DNA of 64,000 bases from Oscillospiraceae bacterium (GCA_014799385.1 JAAVIC010000006.1:52037-116036); one strand, 5' to 3'; positions 29,990 through 56,693 are shown, counted from the stretch's first letter. A program made the numbers and translations. The notes: generated from the letters alone by a model not told the origin.

Positions 29990-30169
29990 AAAGACAACCC
30001 AATATCATTACAGAAAAAAACGTTTGACTGAAGTCAACATAATATTGGGAATTGAAAAAAGGTATAACCATAAAGCGAAAACATTAGACTATAGAATGCA
30101 TTTTTGGGAACAAAAAAAGAGACATAATATCCTTACGGTGAAAACATTCAACTAAAATGAATATTTCAC
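29990..30169 (+). promoter_or_regulatory. Three tandem copies of leader element A upstream of the dockerin/transglutaminase gene
   Basis: Units at about 29990-30060, 30061-30120 (degenerate) and 30121-30169 (3' truncated) share TATCCTTAC(A/G)G-GAAA, the ACTAAAA loop and TTGGGAA. Confidence 0.6.
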
Positions 30170-30191
30170 CAATAACCGGAAAGGAACTGTT

Positions 30192-31658
30192 ATGAAACTT
30201 ACAAAGATTGTCTCGCCGATTGCGGCGATAGCGACAGCATTCTCATTACTGGGCGGGCTCGGTGTTTCCGCGTCGGCGGAAACGTATACATACGCGGCAC
30301 GTTCTTCGGTGGAAAGCCGCGACTGGAGCCGCTACACAACCTCAACAGCGACCGCAAAGCTCTCGGAAAACGAAAGGGAGCTGTACAATAGACTTGACGA
30401 GCTGTGTATGGACTACCTTACAAGCTCAAAGAATGCTGACAGAACAGAAAGTGGGGATTATTATACAGACACCATACGGATTGACGACCTCGGATTCAAC
30501 GATAAAGATGCGTTTGAGGTGCTCTCGTGGTTCAAACACAACAATCCGCAGTACTACTTTATCGAAAACGGCGCGGAATTTCGCACGTATACGTATACAT
30601 ATTCTTCCACACGTACCACCACATTGGAGATGGCGGTTAGTTTTCAGGATTTCGCGATAAACGGAGCCAAGCGCACGCAAATAACCAATGCGATGTTTGA
30701 TAAGCTCGATGAGTGGATTGACGAGTGTTCCTCGGAGAATGGCAGTTTGCAGAAAATCCGCGCGATCAACCGCAAAATCTGCGAATCCATCAAATATGAT
30801 CCGCGCGTTAGGGCGGGAGATGACAGCTACGCCGGCGGGAAAAATCAGTCGATGTATTCCGTACTTATGACCGATGAAACCGTCTGCGCGGGCTATGAAC
30901 TGACATTTGTAGCTATGGCGAACGCTCTCGGAATCGACACTTTGGCGGCTTACAGCAATAACCACGGCTGGAACGTTGTGAGATTCAATGACGGGAAGTA
31001 TTACTATGTCGATGTGACATGGAACGACACGGACAACGGCTATCCCGGATATGTCGAGGACTTTATCGGCATCGGAAAAAATACCGCCGCAAAAGTCGAT
31101 GCGGATCAACCTACCCGCGATTCCCATACATTGAAATTCAACGCGGAAAGGTGGCTTCCGACAATTTCGGCGATAGATTATAAAGAACCCGAAGAAATCG
31201 ATGATTTGTTCAAGGCACCTAAAAACTTAAGAATGATCGACTCACGAATTATGTGGGATGCGGTGTACGGCGTGCAGGAATATGAGGTGCAGGGCGCGTA
31301 CAACCCGCAATTTGATGATCCCGAGAGGTACGTTGCATCTGCCAATCAAACTTCAGTTGAGATCAACATTCCCTATGGAGCGGATACGGTTTGGATACGC
31401 GTGCGCGCAATTCGTATGGGCGAGGCATCCGATTGGACAACTTTGGTCGTAAATCCGAAGAATATGCAATTCCCGCTCGGCGATGTTGACGGCAGCGGAA
31501 AAACAAATGCCGCAGACGCCACAAAGATTCTCAAGCACCTTGTGGGTGCAATGGCGCTCACTTCCGATGAGCTTGATCGCGCTGATGTTGACGGCAATGG
31601 CAGAATGACTGCCGCAGACGCCACCGCGATTCTCAAGATGTTGGTTCAAATGGCATAA
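30192..31658 (+). CDS. Secreted transglutaminase-like (Cys-His-Asp) protein with C-terminal dockerin
   Basis: Signal peptide; VCAGY...HGWN...VDVTW triad; GDVDGSGKTNAADAT and ADVDGNGRMTAADAT duplicated Ca-binding loops. Confidence 0.85.
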   Translation: MKLTKIVSPIAAIATAFSLLGGLGVSASAETYTYAARSSVESRDWSRYTTSTATAKLSENERELYNRLDELCMDYLTSSKNADRTESGDYYTDTIRIDDLGFNDKDAFEVLSWFKHNNPQYYFIENGAEFRTYTYTYSSTRTTTLEMAVSFQDFAINGAKRTQITNAMFDKLDEWIDECSSENGSLQKIRAINRKICESIKYDPRVRAGDDSYAGGKNQSMYSVLMTDETVCAGYELTFVAMANALGIDTLAAYSNNHGWNVVRFNDGKYYYVDVTWNDTDNGYPGYVEDFIGIGKNTAAKVDADQPTRDSHTLKFNAERWLPTISAIDYKEPEEIDDLFKAPKNLRMIDSRIMWDAVYGVQEYEVQGAYNPQFDDPERYVASANQTSVEINIPYGADTVWIRVRAIRMGEASDWTTLVVNPKNMQFPLGDVDGSGKTNAADATKILKHLVGAMALTSDELDRADVDGNGRMTAADATAILKMLVQMA

Positions 31659-50798: not shown

Positions 50799-50903
50799 AG
50801 AAACCAGTCCTTTTTGATATAACTATTCATTATAATTATACACCATTTATTGCAGAATTGCAAGCGGTTTTCTATTTTATTTTGCGAATGGGAATCACAG
50901 AAA

Positions 50904-50932
50904 AGCCGCCCCTCGAACTTTGAGGGGCGGCT
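50904..50932 (-). terminator. Terminator of dockerin operon 2
   Basis: AGCCGCCCCTC stem followed by TTTT on the minus strand. Confidence 0.75.
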
Positions 50933-50958
50933 CACTCTGTTGAAAAATTGTTTTTTGT

Positions 50959-51870
50959 TTACTGTTCGTTGATAAGGAACTTCAGAATCGCAGTCGCGTC
51001 TGCGGCGGTCACTTTGCCGTTCTGATCCATGTCGGCATTTACGCTGCCAATATAGGATAGTTCCATTATGCCCGTCAGGTGTTTGAGGACTGCCGTTGCG
51101 TCTGCGGCGGTTACTATGCCGTCACAATTGGCGTCGCCCTTTTTCCAGGTCGGAGTAGGTGTGGGTTCGGGAGTGGGCGTTGGAGTAGGTGTGGGTTCGG
51201 GTTCCGGAGCAGGTGCGGGGGTAGAATCTATAGCAAAATTAACCCTGATATCTATATCGTTGGCGGGCATTGAAAATGTATATACGGTTTGGTTCGGCTG
51301 CCCCTGAATAGTGTCGGTTTTACAATATCTCGGCTGTCCCGAAACCCACAATTGGCTATTGTGATACTGCACCAGGATGTTATCAACCTTGTAGCCCTCT
51401 TTCGGAGTGGCGGTTATGGTTATCGTTTCGCCCTGTTTTAATGCCCCCTTATCGTCAATGGATATATCTCCCCCAAAGTTTTTGAGCTTCTGATAGATGT
51501 AAAAGGGTTTGTTGGTGGAGCTTGAAAATTCCACATTGTAGCTTACTTCTTCGTCCGGCATATTAATGATATAGGTTTTGCTTTGGCTACGCGGGTGGTC
51601 ATATATAAGTTCTTTATTGGATTTTCTTGCAACTACTGTAAAATTATCAATTTCACAACCATTACTTGCCGTTACGGTTATGGCTACTTGTGTGCCTGCG
51701 GCGGCTTGTGAGGGTGCGTTTACCGTTCCGGGACCTTCGGAACGATTGCATACAATGGGGTGGGTGGCTTGCGCCGCCGAAGCGGTTGTGTTGAATGCGC
51801 TGTTTGCGCTGAATGTGCCTGCCGTGAGAGCCAATGCCATCACAGCAGCAATTATTCTCTTGAATTTCAT
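50959..51870 (-). CDS. Secreted dockerin protein 7 (type A leader, two InlB-B-like repeats, PT linker)
   Basis: Signal peptide MKFKRIIAAVMALAL; F.MP..D(V/I) repeats; KGDANCDG...AADAT x2; ends KFLINEQ. Confidence 0.88.
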   Translation of the reverse strand: MKFKRIIAAVMALALTAGTFSANSAFNTTASAAQATHPIVCNRSEGPGTVNAPSQAAAGTQVAITVTASNGCEIDNFTVVARKSNKELIYDHPRSQSKTYIINMPDEEVSYNVEFSSSTNKPFYIYQKLKNFGGDISIDDKGALKQGETITITATPKEGYKVDNILVQYHNSQLWVSGQPRYCKTDTIQGQPNQTVYTFSMPANDIDIRVNFAIDSTPAPAPEPEPTPTPTPTPEPTPTPTWKKGDANCDGIVTAADATAVLKHLTGIMELSYIGSVNADMDQNGKVTAADATAILKFLINEQ

Positions 51871-51898
51871 TGCGTTTTCCTCCTATGTAGTTTCAATA

Positions 51899-52786
51899 TT
51901 AAGACTTGCCTACAAGCATTTTTAGAATCGCAGTTGCGTCTGCGGCGGTCACTTTGCCGTTCTGATCCATATCGGCATTTATACTGCCCACATATGATAA
52001 CTCCATTATACCCGTCAGGTGTTTGAGGATTGCCGTTGCGTCTGCGGCGGTCACTTTGCCGTCACAATTGGCGTCGCCCTTTTTCCACGTTGGAGAGGGG
52101 GTTGGTGTAGGGTCTGGCGTGGGATTTGGAGTTGGTGTGGGATTCGGGGTAGGTGTAGGATTCGGGGTAGGTGTAGGAGTAGGCTTCGTGGTTGATTGGA
52201 ATCGGCAATATACAACCACAGCATACGCGGGCATTATAAAACTGTTTCCATTAAGCGGAACGATGTCCGCGCTATTCTTATGATTATGCACATAAAGCTC
52301 GGCAATTTCTGCGCCTGCTTTCGGTACAGCGTTTATAGTAATTGTTTCACCTTCAACAGCCCCATATTTACTGACACTCACCTCCCCCAATCCCTCACTT
52401 CCGTCCATATCACAAGAAATCATGTACACCGTGATTGGTTTCATGTGTGTGGTTACACGTACATCGGCATCCGGCATTTGGAATGTCGCGGTGCATTTAG
52501 TCGTCTGAGAACTGATAAGAGTCTGTTCGTAATATTTACCGCCAAGATAATATGATAAAACTATTTTTTCAATCGTGCGGAAGGATTTGGGTTCTGCGGT
52601 TATTGTTACGGTGTCTCCCTCGCGGGCTTTGGGTTTATCGGATTCAATAGATATAAGTTGGTCAGAACCATTTATCACAATAGAGTGTTCTTCTTTTTCT
52701 GCAAATGCCACGGTGCTGAACGAACCCAGCGCAACGATTGAAGCAAGCGCGGCTGCCATAATTGACTTTTTGCCTTTGAATTTCAT
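51899..52786 (-). CDS. Secreted dockerin protein 6 (type B leader, two repeats)
   Basis: MKFKGKKSIMAAAL leader; PT/PN linker; dockerin ending KMLVGKS. Confidence 0.88.
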   Translation of the reverse strand: MKFKGKKSIMAAALASIVALGSFSTVAFAEKEEHSIVINGSDQLISIESDKPKAREGDTVTITAEPKSFRTIEKIVLSYYLGGKYYEQTLISSQTTKCTATFQMPDADVRVTTHMKPITVYMISCDMDGSEGLGEVSVSKYGAVEGETITINAVPKAGAEIAELYVHNHKNSADIVPLNGNSFIMPAYAVVVYCRFQSTTKPTPTPTPNPTPTPNPTPTPNPTPDPTPTPSPTWKKGDANCDGKVTAADATAILKHLTGIMELSYVGSINADMDQNGKVTAADATAILKMLVGKS

Positions 52787-52814
52787 TGAATTTGCCTCCT
52801 ATGTAGTTTCAATA

Positions 52815-53480
52815 TTAAGACTTGCCTACAAGCATTTTTAGAATCGCAGTCGCATCTGCGGCGGTCACTTTGCCGTTTTGGTCCATGTCGGCATTTACGC
52901 TGCCCACATAGGAAAGTTCCATTATGCCAGTCAAATGTTTGAGGATTGCCGTTGCGTCTGCGGCGGTCACTTGGCCGTCACAATTGGCATCGCCCTTTTT
53001 CCAACTGAGTGTCGGAGTTGGGTCGGGAGTCGGTGTCGGAGTGGGAGTAGGGTCGGGTGTGGGAGTAGGTGTGGGGTCAGGCTTTGATGTGGGTGGGTTA
53101 ATGAAATCAAAACGCACACCAACCTGTACATTAACTGAGGGCATTGTAAATCTTTTTTCGTATGTGCCGGTTATGTCGCTGTCATGAAAAAAACACTCCC
53201 CATTTCCTTGGTTGTAATATAAGCTAAATGAACCAATCTTACATCCGGCATCCGGTGTCACAGTTACGATTATCTCCTCGCCTGCCTCAGGGTAGTAATT
53301 ACTAATCACAACACGCCCATCCGGGCATTCTCCATTCGGATAAATTTGACCTACCGAAGCACAACCTACAAAGAGCTTTTTTGCCGGTTGCTCTGCCAGT
53401 GCTACCATACTAAACGAGTTTGCTGCAACAATCGTTGAAAGCGCGGCTGCCATAATTGACTTTTTGCCTTTGAATTTCAT
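52815..53480 (-). CDS. Secreted dockerin protein 5 (type B leader, one Cys-rich repeat)
   Basis: Same leader, linker and dockerin architecture. Confidence 0.88.
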   Translation of the reverse strand: MKFKGKKSIMAAALSTIVAANSFSMVALAEQPAKKLFVGCASVGQIYPNGECPDGRVVISNYYPEAGEEIIVTVTPDAGCKIGSFSLYYNQGNGECFFHDSDITGTYEKRFTMPSVNVQVGVRFDFINPPTSKPDPTPTPTPDPTPTPTPTPDPTPTLSWKKGDANCDGQVTAADATAILKHLTGIMELSYVGSVNADMDQNGKVTAADATAILKMLVGKS

Positions 53481-53507
53481 TGTTTTCCCTCCCGTACGGT
53501 TTCAATA

Positions 53508-54413
53508 TTATGACTTGCCTACAAGCATCTTTAGAATCGCAGTCGCATCTGCGGCGGTTACTTTGCCGTTTTGATCCATATCAGCATTTACGCTGCCAAT
53601 ATAGGATAGTTCCATTATGCCCGTCAAGTGTTTGAGGACTGCCGTTGCGTCTGCGGCGGTTACTATGCCGTCACAATTGGCATCTCCCTTTTTCCAATTG
53701 AGTGTCGGAGTTGGGTCGGGAGTTGGTGTCGGAGTGGGCGTGGGTTCCGGTGTGGGGGCAGGAGCAATATCTTCAACGAAATTAACGCAAATATCTATAT
53801 CGTTGTCGGGCATTGAAAATGTGTATACGGTTTGGTTCGGCTGCCCCGGAATAGTGTCGGTTTTAGAATACTTCGGCTGACCGGGGGTATATGATTGGCT
53901 GTTGTAATACTGAACCAAGACATTGCCAACCTTATAGCCCTCTCTCGGAGTGGCAGTTACGGTTACCAAATCGCCTGGGCTTATTGCTCCTTCCTCCTTG
54001 TCAACCGATATATTTCCCCGACCGGTGTAATACGTTTGATAGATATAATAGGGACGATTGACAGATTTTGAAAAGATCACGTTGTAGTATACCCATTCAT
54101 CCGGCATAACAAATTCATAGGTCTTGCTTTTGCTGCAAGGGGAGTCGTTTATAAGTGTTTTGCCGGATTCTGAAACTACCGTAAAACGATATACTGCATA
54201 ACCCTCATCCGCTGTTGCGGTTAGTTTTACTGTATCACCTGCGGCTGCCTGAGGTGATACATTTACTGTTCCGGGACCATCAAATTGATGGCGGCGAATA
54301 TCGTGGGTGGCTTGTGCCGCCGAAGCGGTTGTGTTGAACGCGCTGTTTGCGCTGAATGTACTTGCTGTGAGAGCCAAGCTCATTACAACAGCTGTTATGG
54401 ACTTAAATTTCAT
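53508..54413 (-). CDS. Secreted dockerin protein 4 (type A leader, two repeats); close paralog of 50959-51870
   Basis: FSANSAFNTTASAAQATH and KTDTI.GQPNQTVYTFSMP shared with protein 7. Confidence 0.88.
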   Translation of the reverse strand: MKFKSITAVVMSLALTASTFSANSAFNTTASAAQATHDIRRHQFDGPGTVNVSPQAAAGDTVKLTATADEGYAVYRFTVVSESGKTLINDSPCSKSKTYEFVMPDEWVYYNVIFSKSVNRPYYIYQTYYTGRGNISVDKEEGAISPGDLVTVTATPREGYKVGNVLVQYYNSQSYTPGQPKYSKTDTIPGQPNQTVYTFSMPDNDIDICVNFVEDIAPAPTPEPTPTPTPTPDPTPTLNWKKGDANCDGIVTAADATAVLKHLTGIMELSYIGSVNADMDQNGKVTAADATAILKMLVGKS

Positions 54414-54491
54414 CGAATCATCCTCCTGTGCAAAAACAGATTAATTTCTTGTTGCAAGCTATTTTGCAACACAGCATAGCTTGTAAAATAT

Positions 54492-54520
54492 ATTATAACA
54501 CAATATAATTTGTTTGTCAA
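54492..54520 (-). promoter_or_regulatory. Promoter of dockerin operon 2
   Basis: TTGACA-N17-TATAAT. Confidence 0.8.
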
Positions 54521-54564
54521 TAGATTTTTCTCAAATTTCATTAAATAATTTTATGGGAATAAGT

Positions 54565-54597
54565 GTGAGCCGCTCCCTATTTCAGGGAGCGGCTCAC
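54565..54597 (-). terminator. Terminator of dockerin operon 1
   Basis: GTGAGCCGCTCCCT-ATTTC-AGGGAGCGGCTCAC. Confidence 0.75.
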
Positions 54598-54620
54598 TCT
54601 GTTGAGAAATTGTTTTTTGT

Positions 54621-55238
54621 TTACTGTTCGTTGATAAGGAATTTCAGAATCGCCGTTGCGTCTGCGGCGGTCACTTTGCCGTTCTGATCCATGTCGGCAT
54701 TTACGCTGCCAATATAGGATAACTCTATTATGCCCGCCAAGTGTTTAAGTACCGCTGTTGCGTCTGCGGCGGTTACTATGCCGTCACAGTTAGCGTCGCC
54801 CTTTTTCCAACTGAGTGTCGGAGTTGGGTCGGGGGTCGGTGTAGGTGTGGGAGTAGGGGTTGGGTCGGGGTCTGGTTCATAATCAAAGGTTACGATTACA
54901 GCTACATCGTGATCCGGCATTTGGATTGGCACCTCACATTTACCCGTCACAAAACTGGCAAGAACTTCTTTATTATAACTATCTATAGATTCTGCTATAG
55001 ATAACCATTTAATTATGACACCGGATTCAGGTTCTGCGGTTATTGTTACGGTATCGCCTTCGCGGGCTTTGGTTTTATTGGTAGCTATACGTCCGTTTCC
55101 ACGTGAAGTGGGTCCTATATATATCCGAACATTATGTTCGGTTTTTTCTTCCGCAAATGCCACGGTGCTGAACGAACCCACTGCAACGATTGAAGCAAGC
55201 GCGGCTGCCATAATTACCTTTTTACCTTTGAATTTCAT
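54621..55238 (-). CDS. Secreted dockerin protein 3 (type B leader, one repeat)
   Basis: Same architecture; ends KFLINEQ. Confidence 0.88.
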   Translation of the reverse strand: MKFKGKKVIMAAALASIVAVGSFSTVAFAEEKTEHNVRIYIGPTSRGNGRIATNKTKAREGDTVTITAEPESGVIIKWLSIAESIDSYNKEVLASFVTGKCEVPIQMPDHDVAVIVTFDYEPDPDPTPTPTPTPTPDPTPTLSWKKGDANCDGIVTAADATAVLKHLAGIIELSYIGSVNADMDQNGKVTAADATAILKFLINEQ

Positions 55239-55266
55239 TGTGTTTTCCTCCTATGTAGTTTCAATA

Positions 55267-55911
55267 TTAAGTCTTTCCGACAAGTAGCTTCAGAATCGCC
55301 GTTGCGTCTGCGGCGGTTACTTTGCCGTTCTGATCCATATCGGCATTTACGCTGCCCATATAGGATAGTTCCATTATACCCGCCAAGTGTTTAAGCACCG
55401 CTGTTGCGTCCTCGGCGGTCACTTTGCCGTCGCAGTTAGCGTCGCCCTTTTTCCAAGTCGGAGCGGGTGTGGGAGTAGGAGTAGGCGTTGGGGTGGGCGT
55501 AGGGGTAGGAGTTGGGGTAGGAGTAGGGTCAGGTTCGGGAGTAGGTTCGGGTATGAAATCCCAAACCACAGAAACAGTTACGTGTTTTGCGGGCATTGTA
55601 AACGTTGTGGTAAACGTTGAAGTACCGCTCGAATAGAGTTGTCCGTTAATATAAAGATTATTATACCTGCAGCCCGCAGCGGGCGTCACGGTCACGGTTA
55701 TGGTTTCGCCCGGGGAAATATCCCGGGTTTTGCTTACAGACAATGTCCCGGAGGGCTGTTGGATTCTGTCTCCATACTTGGGGTAAGATGTAATGCTGTT
55801 GATTGAATAAGTTTGGGTGCTTCCCGCAAACGCTGTCGCGCTGAAAGAGTTTGCCGCAACAATTGCCGAAAGCGCGGCTGCCATAATTGCCTTTTTACTC
55901 TTGAATTTCAT
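55267..55911 (-). CDS. Secreted dockerin protein 2 (type B leader, one repeat, long PT linker)
   Basis: Same architecture; ends KLLVGKT. Confidence 0.88.
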   Translation of the reverse strand: MKFKSKKAIMAAALSAIVAANSFSATAFAGSTQTYSINSITSYPKYGDRIQQPSGTLSVSKTRDISPGETITVTVTPAAGCRYNNLYINGQLYSSGTSTFTTTFTMPAKHVTVSVVWDFIPEPTPEPDPTPTPTPTPTPTPTPTPTPTPAPTWKKGDANCDGKVTAEDATAVLKHLAGIMELSYMGSVNADMDQNGKVTAADATAILKLLVGKT

Positions 55912-55938
55912 TGTTTCTCCTCCCGTACGGTTTCAAAA

Positions 55939-56583
55939 TTACGACTTGCCTACAAGTAACTTCAGAATCGCAGTTGCGTCTGCGGCGGTTACTTTGCCGT
56001 TTTGATCCATATCAGCATTTACGCTGCCCATATAGGATAGTTCTGTTATGCCTGCCAAGTGTTTGAGTACCGCTGTTGCGTCCTCGGCTGTTACTTTGCC
56101 GTCACAATTTGCGTCGCCCTTTTTCCAAGTGGGAGCGGGAGTTATGGGAGGCTGCTCCGGAGTAGGCTCGGGTGTGGGATCGGGAGTAGGCTCAGGTGTA
56201 GGTTCGGGCACGGGTGCATAATCCCAAATTGCGGTTACGTCCACATCAGCATCAGGCATTTGGAAACATGCGGTATATTGAGTTGTTATATCGCTGGCAA
56301 GAGTCTGTTTGTTCCCATTGTACTCAAGAATTATTTTTGCTTGGCAGCCGGGATAAGGTTCTACTGTTATTTCTACGATTTCGTCTTCGCAGACTTGAGC
56401 TTTATTGGTATTTATACGTCCGCCTCTAGTTACATGTTCGTTTGCGGGCGTATTTGGAATACGTGAATGAAGTTTAACATTATGTTCGGTTTTTTCCGCC
56501 AATGCAACTGTATTGAACGAACCCACCGCAACGATTGAAGCAAGCGCGGCTGCTATAATTGACTTTTTGCCTTTGAATTTCAT
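55939..56583 (-). CDS. Secreted dockerin protein 1 (type B leader, one repeat)
   Basis: Start ATG 56583 after CAGGAGGA RBS; same architecture. Confidence 0.88.
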   Translation of the reverse strand: MKFKGKKSIIAAALASIVAVGSFNTVALAEKTEHNVKLHSRIPNTPANEHVTRGGRINTNKAQVCEDEIVEITVEPYPGCQAKIILEYNGNKQTLASDITTQYTACFQMPDADVDVTAIWDYAPVPEPTPEPTPDPTPEPTPEQPPITPAPTWKKGDANCDGKVTAEDATAVLKHLAGITELSYMGSVNADMDQNGKVTAADATAILKLLVGKS

Positions 56584-56664
56584 TGTGCTTTCCTCCTGTG
56601 CAAAAGAACAGAACCAATTTCCTGTGTAAGCTATATTGCAGTACAATATATCTTTTTAAGATGT

Positions 56665-56693
56665 ATTATAACACAAGAAAGCTGTCTTGTCAA
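56665..56693 (-). promoter_or_regulatory. Promoter of dockerin operon 1
   Basis: TTGACA-N17-TATAAT; flanks resemble those at 54492-54560. Confidence 0.8.

Follow-up and report, generated by a model that had tools for sequence, protein, structure and literature searches.

The subject of this report is an array of seven genes for small secreted dockerin proteins, at positions 50,904-56,693 of a 64,000-nucleotide (nt) stretch of DNA from an uncultured gut Oscillospiraceae bacterium (GCA_014799385.1 JAAVIC010000006.1:52037-116036). We refer to that whole stretch as the window and to its host genome as G000; coordinates without a prefix are positions in the window. The best overall explanation, which we hold with moderate confidence, is that the array represents a recombining dockerin family displayed on a divergent, miniature cohesin-type anchor, with an adhesin-type role. 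A sequence-only reading of the window had described a diversified family with constant ends and variable middles, and this is borne out by comparison of the seven paralogs, whose dockerins are 82-97% identical at the amino acid (aa) level while their middles are only 23-60% identical.

All seven genes are intact open reading frames (ORFs) on the minus strand, encoding proteins of 205-303 aa, and each copy has its own ribosome-binding site (Table 1). The spacers between them, 27-28 nt long, fall into two near-identical subtypes (TATTGAAACCGTACGGGAGG and TATTGAAACTACATAGGAGG), both of which carry a GGAGG ribosome-binding site. Because there are two promoters, and terminators after g3 and g7, the array divides into two operons, g1-g3 and g4-g7. 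Both promoters are of the extended sigma-70 type (TTGACA-17-TGnTATAAT) with homologous upstream and leader surroundings, and the hairpin after g3 was missed by a terminator scan because its T tail is weak. The co-orientation and sizes of the genes, their near-identical spacers and their division into operons of three and four genes, each with its own homologous promoter and terminator, had all been proposed in the sequence-only reading and agree with the ORFs, promoter scan and hairpins found here. The array is not a product of chance, as its members are clear paralogs with intact frames and syntenic arrays are present in at least four other assemblies. Judged from their consensus promoters, both operons look constitutive and strongly transcribed. 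A short conserved hairpin lies between the -10 box and the ribosome-binding site in both operon leaders (54452-54486 and 56628-56654; TTGCAAGCTAT/ATAGCTTGTAA and AAGCTATATTG/CAATATATCTT) and is a possible leader element common to the two operons.

Table 1. Features of the dockerin array, other dockerin genes in the window, and the candidate receptor genes elsewhere in the genome.
Feature	Position	Strand	Description	Evidence
g1	55939..56583	-	Signal peptide, one beta-sandwich module, Pro/Thr (PT) linker and dockerin; 214 aa from ATG at 56583	ORF and Pfam
g2	55267..55911	-	Architecture as g1, 214 aa; not in strain L028	Flg_new_2 E 3e-7; Dockerin_1 E 1e-9
g3	54621..55238	-	Architecture as g1, 205 aa; closes operon 1	...KFLINEQ dockerin tail common to g3 and g7
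g4	53508..54413	-	Signal peptide, two beta-sandwich modules, PT linker and dockerin; 301 aa	Flg_new_2 E 2e-15; AlphaFold
g5	52815..53480	-	Member with one module, 221 aa	ORF and Pfam
g6	51899..52786	-	Member with two modules, 295 aa	ORF and Pfam
g7	50959..51870	-	Member with two modules, 303 aa	ORF and Pfam
Operon 1 promoter	56665..56693	-	TTGACA-17-TATAAT with TG extension	12/12 consensus; homologous to operon 2 promoter
Operon 2 promoter	54492..54520	-	TTGACA-17-TATAAT with TG extension	12/12 consensus matches
Operon 1 terminator	54562..54600	-	Hairpin after g3	17-nt arms, 94% complementary; homologous to hairpin 3' of g7
Operon 2 terminator	about 50901..50931	-	Intrinsic terminator, GCCGCCCCTC ... 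GAGGGGCGGC then TTTT	Direct sequence reading; homology to first terminator
696-aa dockerin protein	59046..61136	+	Neighbouring secreted protein with a different dockerin; outside the array, same dockerin set	Dockerin_1 E 1.4e-7
Transglutaminase-like protein	30156..31655	+	C-terminal dockerin; another dockerin cargo in the window that is not a carbohydrate-active enzyme	Transglut_core E 3e-6; Dockerin_1 E 3e-9
P0051	C25:138304-139083		Candidate receptor, 212 aa; outside the window	Sorting-signal scan
P0051 paralog	C1:42940-43563		Sorting signal NPNSG	Directly downstream of a dockerin-ending gene

Sec-type signal peptides stand at the N-terminus of all seven proteins (as in MKFKGKKSIMAAALASIVA...AFA|E); they are of one type (MKFKGKK...) in g1, g2, g3, g5 and g6 and of another (MKFK(S/R)I...) in g4 and g7. 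The C-terminal dockerin (Pfam Dockerin_1, E 2e-10 to 1e-9 in all seven) is preceded by a Pro/Thr linker, which is 23-33 residues long. The dockerin is a canonical two-repeat domain with calcium loops DANCDGKVTAED and DMDQNGKVTAAD, as read from the sequences, and it conforms to the type I-like PF00404 pattern of two repeats of about 22 residues, in which an EF-hand-like calcium loop (D-x-[ND]-x-[DN]-G ... D) is followed by a helix. Pfam found no catalytic domain in any of the seven array proteins. For the variable middles, Flg_new_2 (PF18998, the divergent InlB B-repeat) scored above its gathering score of 23.6 bits in five of the seven (g4, 57.0; g7, 56.5; g6, 36.2; g2, 30.7; g3, 23.9 bits) and below it in g1 (15.8 bits) and g5 (15.1 bits).

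The model of g4 that AlphaFold produced from an alignment of 28 family sequences (mean predicted local distance difference test score, pLDDT, of 74), contains a first all-beta domain at residues 36-114 (pLDDT 81-96 as ten-residue block means over residues 31-110), a second at residues 124-214, a disordered linker, and a dockerin of three helices (253-297; pLDDT 87-91, again as ten-residue block means), with no helix anywhere within residues 36-214. In Foldseek searches of the PDB, the beta domains returned only generic tandem immunoglobulin-like (Ig) or fibronectin type III (FN3) matches (E about 1e-4, template modelling score (TM) <= 0.26), and no InlB structure was among the top 50 matches of the g4 model. 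The g4 dockerin, by comparison, superposed on the Ruminococcus flavefaciens ScaB dockerin 4uyq_B (TM 0.78, root-mean-square deviation 1.5 A, 30% identity), and it also matched a dockerin from C. thermocellum. The non-catalytic architecture of signal peptide, one or two beta domains, PT linker and dockerin put forward in the sequence-only reading is thus confirmed by Pfam and sequence and, for g4, by the model. Its description of the beta domains as InlB-B-like stands as far as the Pfam family is concerned, but the model is an all-beta Ig/FN3-like sandwich with generic structural matches only; the InlB B-repeat fold itself is beta-grasp-like.

The dockerin-coding DNA of the seven paralogs is only 80-92% identical, with dN 0.065, dS 0.59 and dN/dS about 0.11 over 21 paralog pairs (g3 and g7, at 97% aa and 92.5% nt identity, are one such pair). 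With this DNA divergence and a dS of about 0.6 the copies must be old, and the constancy of the dockerins comes from purifying selection rather than from very recent copying. We accordingly rejected recent gene conversion as the main cause of this constancy, given a paralog dS of about 0.6, although local exchanges do occur, and the substitution pattern indicates that the dockerins are held constant by strong purifying selection on the protein. The two repeats within each dockerin are also near-symmetric (DANCDGKVTA(A/E)DATAVLK and DMDQNGKVTAADATAILK, with KVTA[AE]DATA[VI]LK occurring twice). Near-identical, internally symmetric dockerins under purifying selection fit a single shared type of receptor. 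An almost invariant cysteine lies within the first calcium loop (DANCDG) of all seven dockerins, which is unusual for classical dockerins, and related genomes contain a WEKGD subtype with a further cysteine ahead of the second loop (QGCKNAD).

The middles behave differently. Even g4 and g7, which are paralogs in both signal peptide and middle, are only 60% identical at the aa level in the latter, and dN/dS of the middles, where they can be aligned, ranges from 0.07 to 0.76, against 0.08-0.11 for the flanking housekeeping genes. These values suggest that the middles are under relaxed or diversifying evolution rather than demonstrable positive selection.

The sequence-only reading had allowed that the array might prove invariant across strains; it is not, and gene number, order and cassette content all differ. 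The array lies between an elongation factor G (EF-G) paralog and a CCA-enzyme-like gene plus histidine kinase, and this locus was recovered from four other assemblies. The closest, L028 (ENA ERZ27276805), has flanking genes 98.4-98.9% identical to the window at the nt level (dS 0.04-0.06) but five array genes instead of seven. Its first gene, a1, is a chimera of g1 and g3: the opening ~480 nt match g1 and the closing ~120 nt match g3, both at 100% identity. The crossover point falls within the dockerin-coding sequence, and L028 lacks g2 as well as the halves of g1 and g3 that lie between, a structure characteristic of unequal crossing-over between dockerin-coding repeats. The L028 ortholog of g4 is 98-100% identical except at nt 90-450, the first beta domain, where identity drops to 74-83%, and codons 33-150 give dN 0.19 and dS 0.60, against dS 0.04-0.06 in the flanking genes, from which we conclude that this first cassette was swapped. 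The orthologs of g5, g6 and g7 are 99.7, 97.1 and 96.5% identical, respectively, and the PT-linker length of the g6 ortholog differs between strains.

In less closely related genomes (flank dS 0.16-0.24), other cassettes occupy the array site, and the terminal gene always has the ...KFLINEQ tail. The same cassette can also be found on different dockerins across genomes: the middles of d2 and g7 differ by a dS of only 0.10 and the dockerins attached to them by 0.93, indicating that cassettes and dockerins have different histories. At a second locus, between the pyruvate phosphate dikinase (PPDK) and MgtE genes, G000 has two genes against four in the L028 sample, and here, too, the tails are chimeric. 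Overall, the 41 family members that we collected represent 21 cassette types at 60% identity.

All of this variation was seen between strains and not inside the assembly. Invertible promoters were considered and rejected, since neither array promoter is surrounded by convincing inverted repeats, and no dedicated device for antigenic or phase variation was found at the array, where no search for diversity-generating retroelements was made; the absence of a switch suggests that diversity builds up as lineages diverge and is not generated by a programme inside the cell. These observations bear on the possibility that the family is a decoy or evasion library, whose variable modules would be surface antigens escaping phage receptor-binding proteins or host immunoglobulin A. 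The high cassette diversity, the different strain content at two loci and the elevation of dN/dS in the middles above that of dockerins or flanking genes would all be expected of such a library. However, dN/dS is below 1 in every reliable comparison, and with no switching device and two constitutive-looking promoters all genes would be expressed together, unlike in usual antigenic variation. We consider this explanation very unlikely, and the earlier proposal of decoys and of phage or antibody evasion finds no support in middles whose evolution looks relaxed.

The seven genes are part of a lineage-specific multigene family, of which G000 has ten copies at three loci: the array, C1:57078-58625 (two copies) and C2 (one copy). 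The C1 member at 57918-58472 has a dockerin reduced to a single repeat (WKKGDANCDGRVNAEDATAILKLLVGNP) by an in-frame deletion between its two repeats, while intact versions of this gene exist in other samples (P0015 and L036 e1). The family is rare, with 38 matches among 5.8 billion proteins at E <= 1e-5, mostly through the dockerin alone, and among 81 species of the genus it is present only in G000 and G024. A literature search found no description of such arrays.

At the third locus (G000 C2:277-3621; also L035:942-6753), the family stands behind two genes, one for an extracytoplasmic function (ECF) sigma factor and the other for an anti-sigma-like protein anchored in the membrane (585 aa in G000, 690 aa in L035), with one dockerin gene in G000 and four in L035, and the dockerins are of a different subtype (YKKGDVNGDG...). 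This arrangement recalls the sigma-I/RsgI control of cellulosomal genes. The 585-aa protein was examined as a possible cohesin carrier and rejected (Pfam Cohesin 14.9 bits over 39 residues, AlphaFold pLDDT 56, HHalign probability 2.9%); it is better read as the putative anti-sigma partner of the adjacent ECF sigma factor.

The sequence-only reading had made its proposal depend on the presence of a cohesin in the genome. The G000 assembly (2.69 Mb, 33 contigs) is 99.9% complete, and it has no Pfam Cohesin match at E <= 0.001 (best 12.7 bits at E <= 10) and nothing at E <= 20 with a hidden Markov model (HMM) of 19 cohesin domains from genomes of the same family. Classical cohesins are thus missing from the genome by both measures, whereas a divergent, cohesin-like, anchored candidate exists outside the window. 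Seventeen dockerin ORFs were found in G000, ten of which make up the small array family. Six of the remaining seven were run through Pfam, the truncated C25 dockerin gene being left out; one was transglutaminase-like, one had a weak, sub-threshold BspA-type leucine-rich repeat (LRR), and the others had a dockerin alone. No glycoside hydrolase or carbohydrate-binding module was found among the dockerin ORFs run through Pfam. Since a 99.9%-complete genome has neither a Pfam cohesin nor a dockerin-bearing carbohydrate-active enzyme (CAZyme), the system is not a cellulosome. Two other possibilities were set aside: anchoring by S-layer homology (SLH) domains, as there is no SLH domain in the G000 genome, and a 184-aa protein at C20:179846 with a weak Pfam cohesin match (E 0.2-0.3), which has no link to any dockerin gene.

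In the wider taxon, Pfam cohesins occur in only 1-2 of the 81 species of the genus and in 37 of the 151 genera of the family. This distribution raises the possibility that the bacterium has no receptor of its own, and that the array proteins are released and dock on the cohesins of cellulosome- or amylosome-bearing members of the community, as hitch-hikers or as competitors for scaffoldin sites. Such a role would accord with a genome that lacks classical cohesins in a genus that has almost none, with the frequency of cohesins in other genera of the same family, and with a canonical dockerin whose nearest structural relatives are ruminococcal and clostridial. On the other hand, species specificity is the rule for cohesin-dockerin pairs, the array has no link to a particular scaffoldin of another organism, and a conserved candidate receptor is encoded beside dockerin genes and co-occurs with the family. 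Docking on foreign cohesins is in our view quite unlikely.

This candidate receptor, P0051, was found by scanning the genome for cell-wall sorting signals. Its signal peptide is followed by a beta domain (~115-125 aa) and a linker rich in S and T, and then by the motif SPATG, a hydrophobic stretch and RKRK; G000 has four sortase genes. Proteins of its family are ~190-210 aa long with an NPxTG-type sortase signal, and they are rare, a set of 1.8 billion proteins containing 12 representatives. Three distant members have C-termini that match NCBIfam NF033846 Rumino_NPXTG, with one match above the cut-off. Both G000 copies lie directly downstream of a gene ending in a dockerin, as do 11 of the 14 receptor-family loci across the genus, and in G024 the gene upstream of the candidate is itself a member of the small family. 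Moreover, strong P0051 orthologs (E about 1e-72) and the small dockerin family co-occur only in G000 and G024 among the 81 genomes of the genus. In G000 the contig end cuts the dockerin gene that precedes P0051 (C25:139038-139526) in a run of 19 Ser codons, and this gene is also cut in the related assembly L037.

A relationship between the P0051 domain and cohesins is suggested by profile comparison. HHalign aligned a 16-member receptor alignment with a cohesin profile at 73-80% probability over 90-145 columns, with the characteristic strands in register (G-D/E-T-V-T-V...; G-L-E-x-V-S; V-A-T-L-T-Y-K-V), while the controls gave 1.9% for the reversed alignment, <= 0.2% for ten column shuffles, 16.5% over 37 columns for the array family and 2.9% for the anti-sigma protein. 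In addition, a bona fide Pfam cohesin of the sister-genus genome L018 has an identical architecture of signal peptide, cohesin, linker, NPGTS, transmembrane stretch and RKRKK. We judge it fairly likely that the P0051 family is the dockerin receptor of the genus, and somewhat less likely that it is a true cohesin homolog.

Several observations weigh against this interpretation. The candidate has no Pfam match; its family gave only chance matches to PDB sequences; an HMM of the domain alone scores just 11.8 bits on true cohesins; and the 22.5 bits that a family member in G242 reached with Pfam Cohesin in a six-frame search (cut-off 24.1) were not reproduced by default hmmscan. The domain, at ~115 aa, is shorter than a typical cohesin (~140 aa), and the receptor genes in G000 adjoin other dockerin genes and not the array. 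As G000 and G024 may be sister species, the co-occurrence of receptor and family could equal a single evolutionary event. As regards the cargo, positive selection on the middles could not be demonstrated by dN/dS of alignable pairs.

The moderate evidence for cohesin homology of the candidate leaves room for a dockerin-like module that acts without any cohesin-type partner, through calcium-dependent binding to a cell-wall polymer, self-association or a stabilising effect. Orphan dockerins of many non-cellulosomal genomes are suspected of acting in this way, and the invariant cysteine in DANCDG could indicate a different chemistry. Yet near-symmetric repeats under very strong purifying selection across ten paralogs are the pattern expected of a specific interface with dual binding modes, and a partner-free role leaves the tight linkage between anchor and dockerin genes unexplained. 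We regard this alternative as unlikely.

Display on a divergent anchor, the explanation we favour, runs as follows. A constant block of ~300 bp, made up of the dockerin, the 27-28-nt spacer and the next signal peptide, and kept constant in its dockerin part by purifying selection, provides homology for unequal and allelic recombination through which cassettes are deleted, added and swapped; recombination in this block accounts for close strains having different gene numbers and cassette sets. After secretion, the products would probably be held on the cell wall by their dockerins, in a non-covalent and calcium-dependent manner. The likely receptor is the small NPxTG sortase-anchored protein, whose one beta domain of ~115 aa may be a very divergent minimal cohesin, and because the dockerins are nearly identical the array proteins would compete for one site on it. 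The Ig-like modules would then act as adhesin-type binding modules, and the outcome would be a non-cellulosomal cohesin-dockerin display of strain-variable binding modules. The most likely role, by analogy with CttA-ScaE of R. flavefaciens, is to make the cell adhere to surfaces of dietary, host or microbial origin. A library of surface-displayed binding modules on one type of receptor, as in the sequence-only reading, remains the best reading, but the partner is not a classical cohesin. More tentatively, this genus, otherwise scored as cohesin-free, may use a new class of minimal, divergent cohesins (~115 aa, NPxTG-anchored) to show recombining, non-enzymatic dockerin cargo, with strain-specific Ig-like sets sharing one anchor for a purpose unrelated to fibre degradation; we would put this at somewhat less than an even chance.

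Two further sequences were noted in the course of this work. The 696-aa dockerin protein next to the array shares 95% identity overall with its L028 ortholog, but over the first 180 nt the figure falls to 62-87%, which makes its N-terminus strain-variable as well. An ORF exceeding 1700 aa, with calcium-binding repeats of the GGxGxD type, leaves the 3' end of C21 and resumes at the 5' end of C25, the two parts having the peptide TVYYPYSGYDAIL in common.

Dockerins in cohesin-free genomes are common in gut and rumen Clostridia, where they are without an assigned role, and this locus makes the question testable by offering a compact, highly conserved dockerin, two candidate receptors beside dockerin genes and at least 21 interchangeable cargo modules. 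If the proposed pairing is true, cohesin-dockerin biology would reach from enzyme complexes to the strain-variable display of adhesins in commensals, and Pfam-based surveys of cohesins would be overlooking a receptor class. The exact crossovers within dockerin DNA also provide a clear case of a conserved functional tag that drives the reshuffling of its own gene family.

With 17 dockerins and no Pfam cohesin, G000 belongs in the category of "few dockerins, no cohesins" that the Hungate1000 survey used for orphan dockerins in non-cellulosomal Clostridia, and for which it gives neither a function nor a partner (PMC6118326). G000 differs in that more than half of its dockerins belong to one tandem, cassette-organised family and in that a conserved candidate receptor can be named. 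Naturally truncated, single-repeat dockerins are described from R. flavefaciens (PMC12270676). The gene at C1:57918-58472 likewise has a single-repeat dockerin, in this case one copy of ten and apparently a by-product of recombination.

In organisation, the array resembles the inlGHE and inlC2DE clusters of Listeria, in which tandem genes for small secreted or surface proteins have conserved ends, and recombination between neighbouring paralogs produces chimeras and changes in gene number. Both systems comprise tandem paralogs with conserved ends, and the array modules match a Pfam family named after the InlB B-repeat. Unlike the internalins, the array proteins have no LRR and would attach by a dockerin rather than by GW modules, an LPXTG motif or free secretion, and their host is a gut commensal instead of an invasive pathogen.

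In function, the closest analogy would be the CttA-ScaE and ScaB-ScaE anchoring module of the R. flavefaciens cellulosome. G000 departs from it in several ways: it has neither a scaffoldin nor a dockerin-bearing CAZyme, and Pfam recognises no cohesin in it; its cargo is a recombining Ig-like family of about ten copies rather than one cellulose-binding protein, its candidate anchor domain is shorter and only distantly cohesin-like, and its genus is otherwise scored as free of cohesins. The two systems nevertheless have in common a secreted, non-catalytic binding protein that ends in a dockerin, a model of which superposes, for the array, on the dockerin of ScaB; a small single-cohesin protein, here a candidate, that receives this dockerin and is anchored to the cell wall by sortase; and a gene for this anchor located directly downstream of dockerin-bearing genes.

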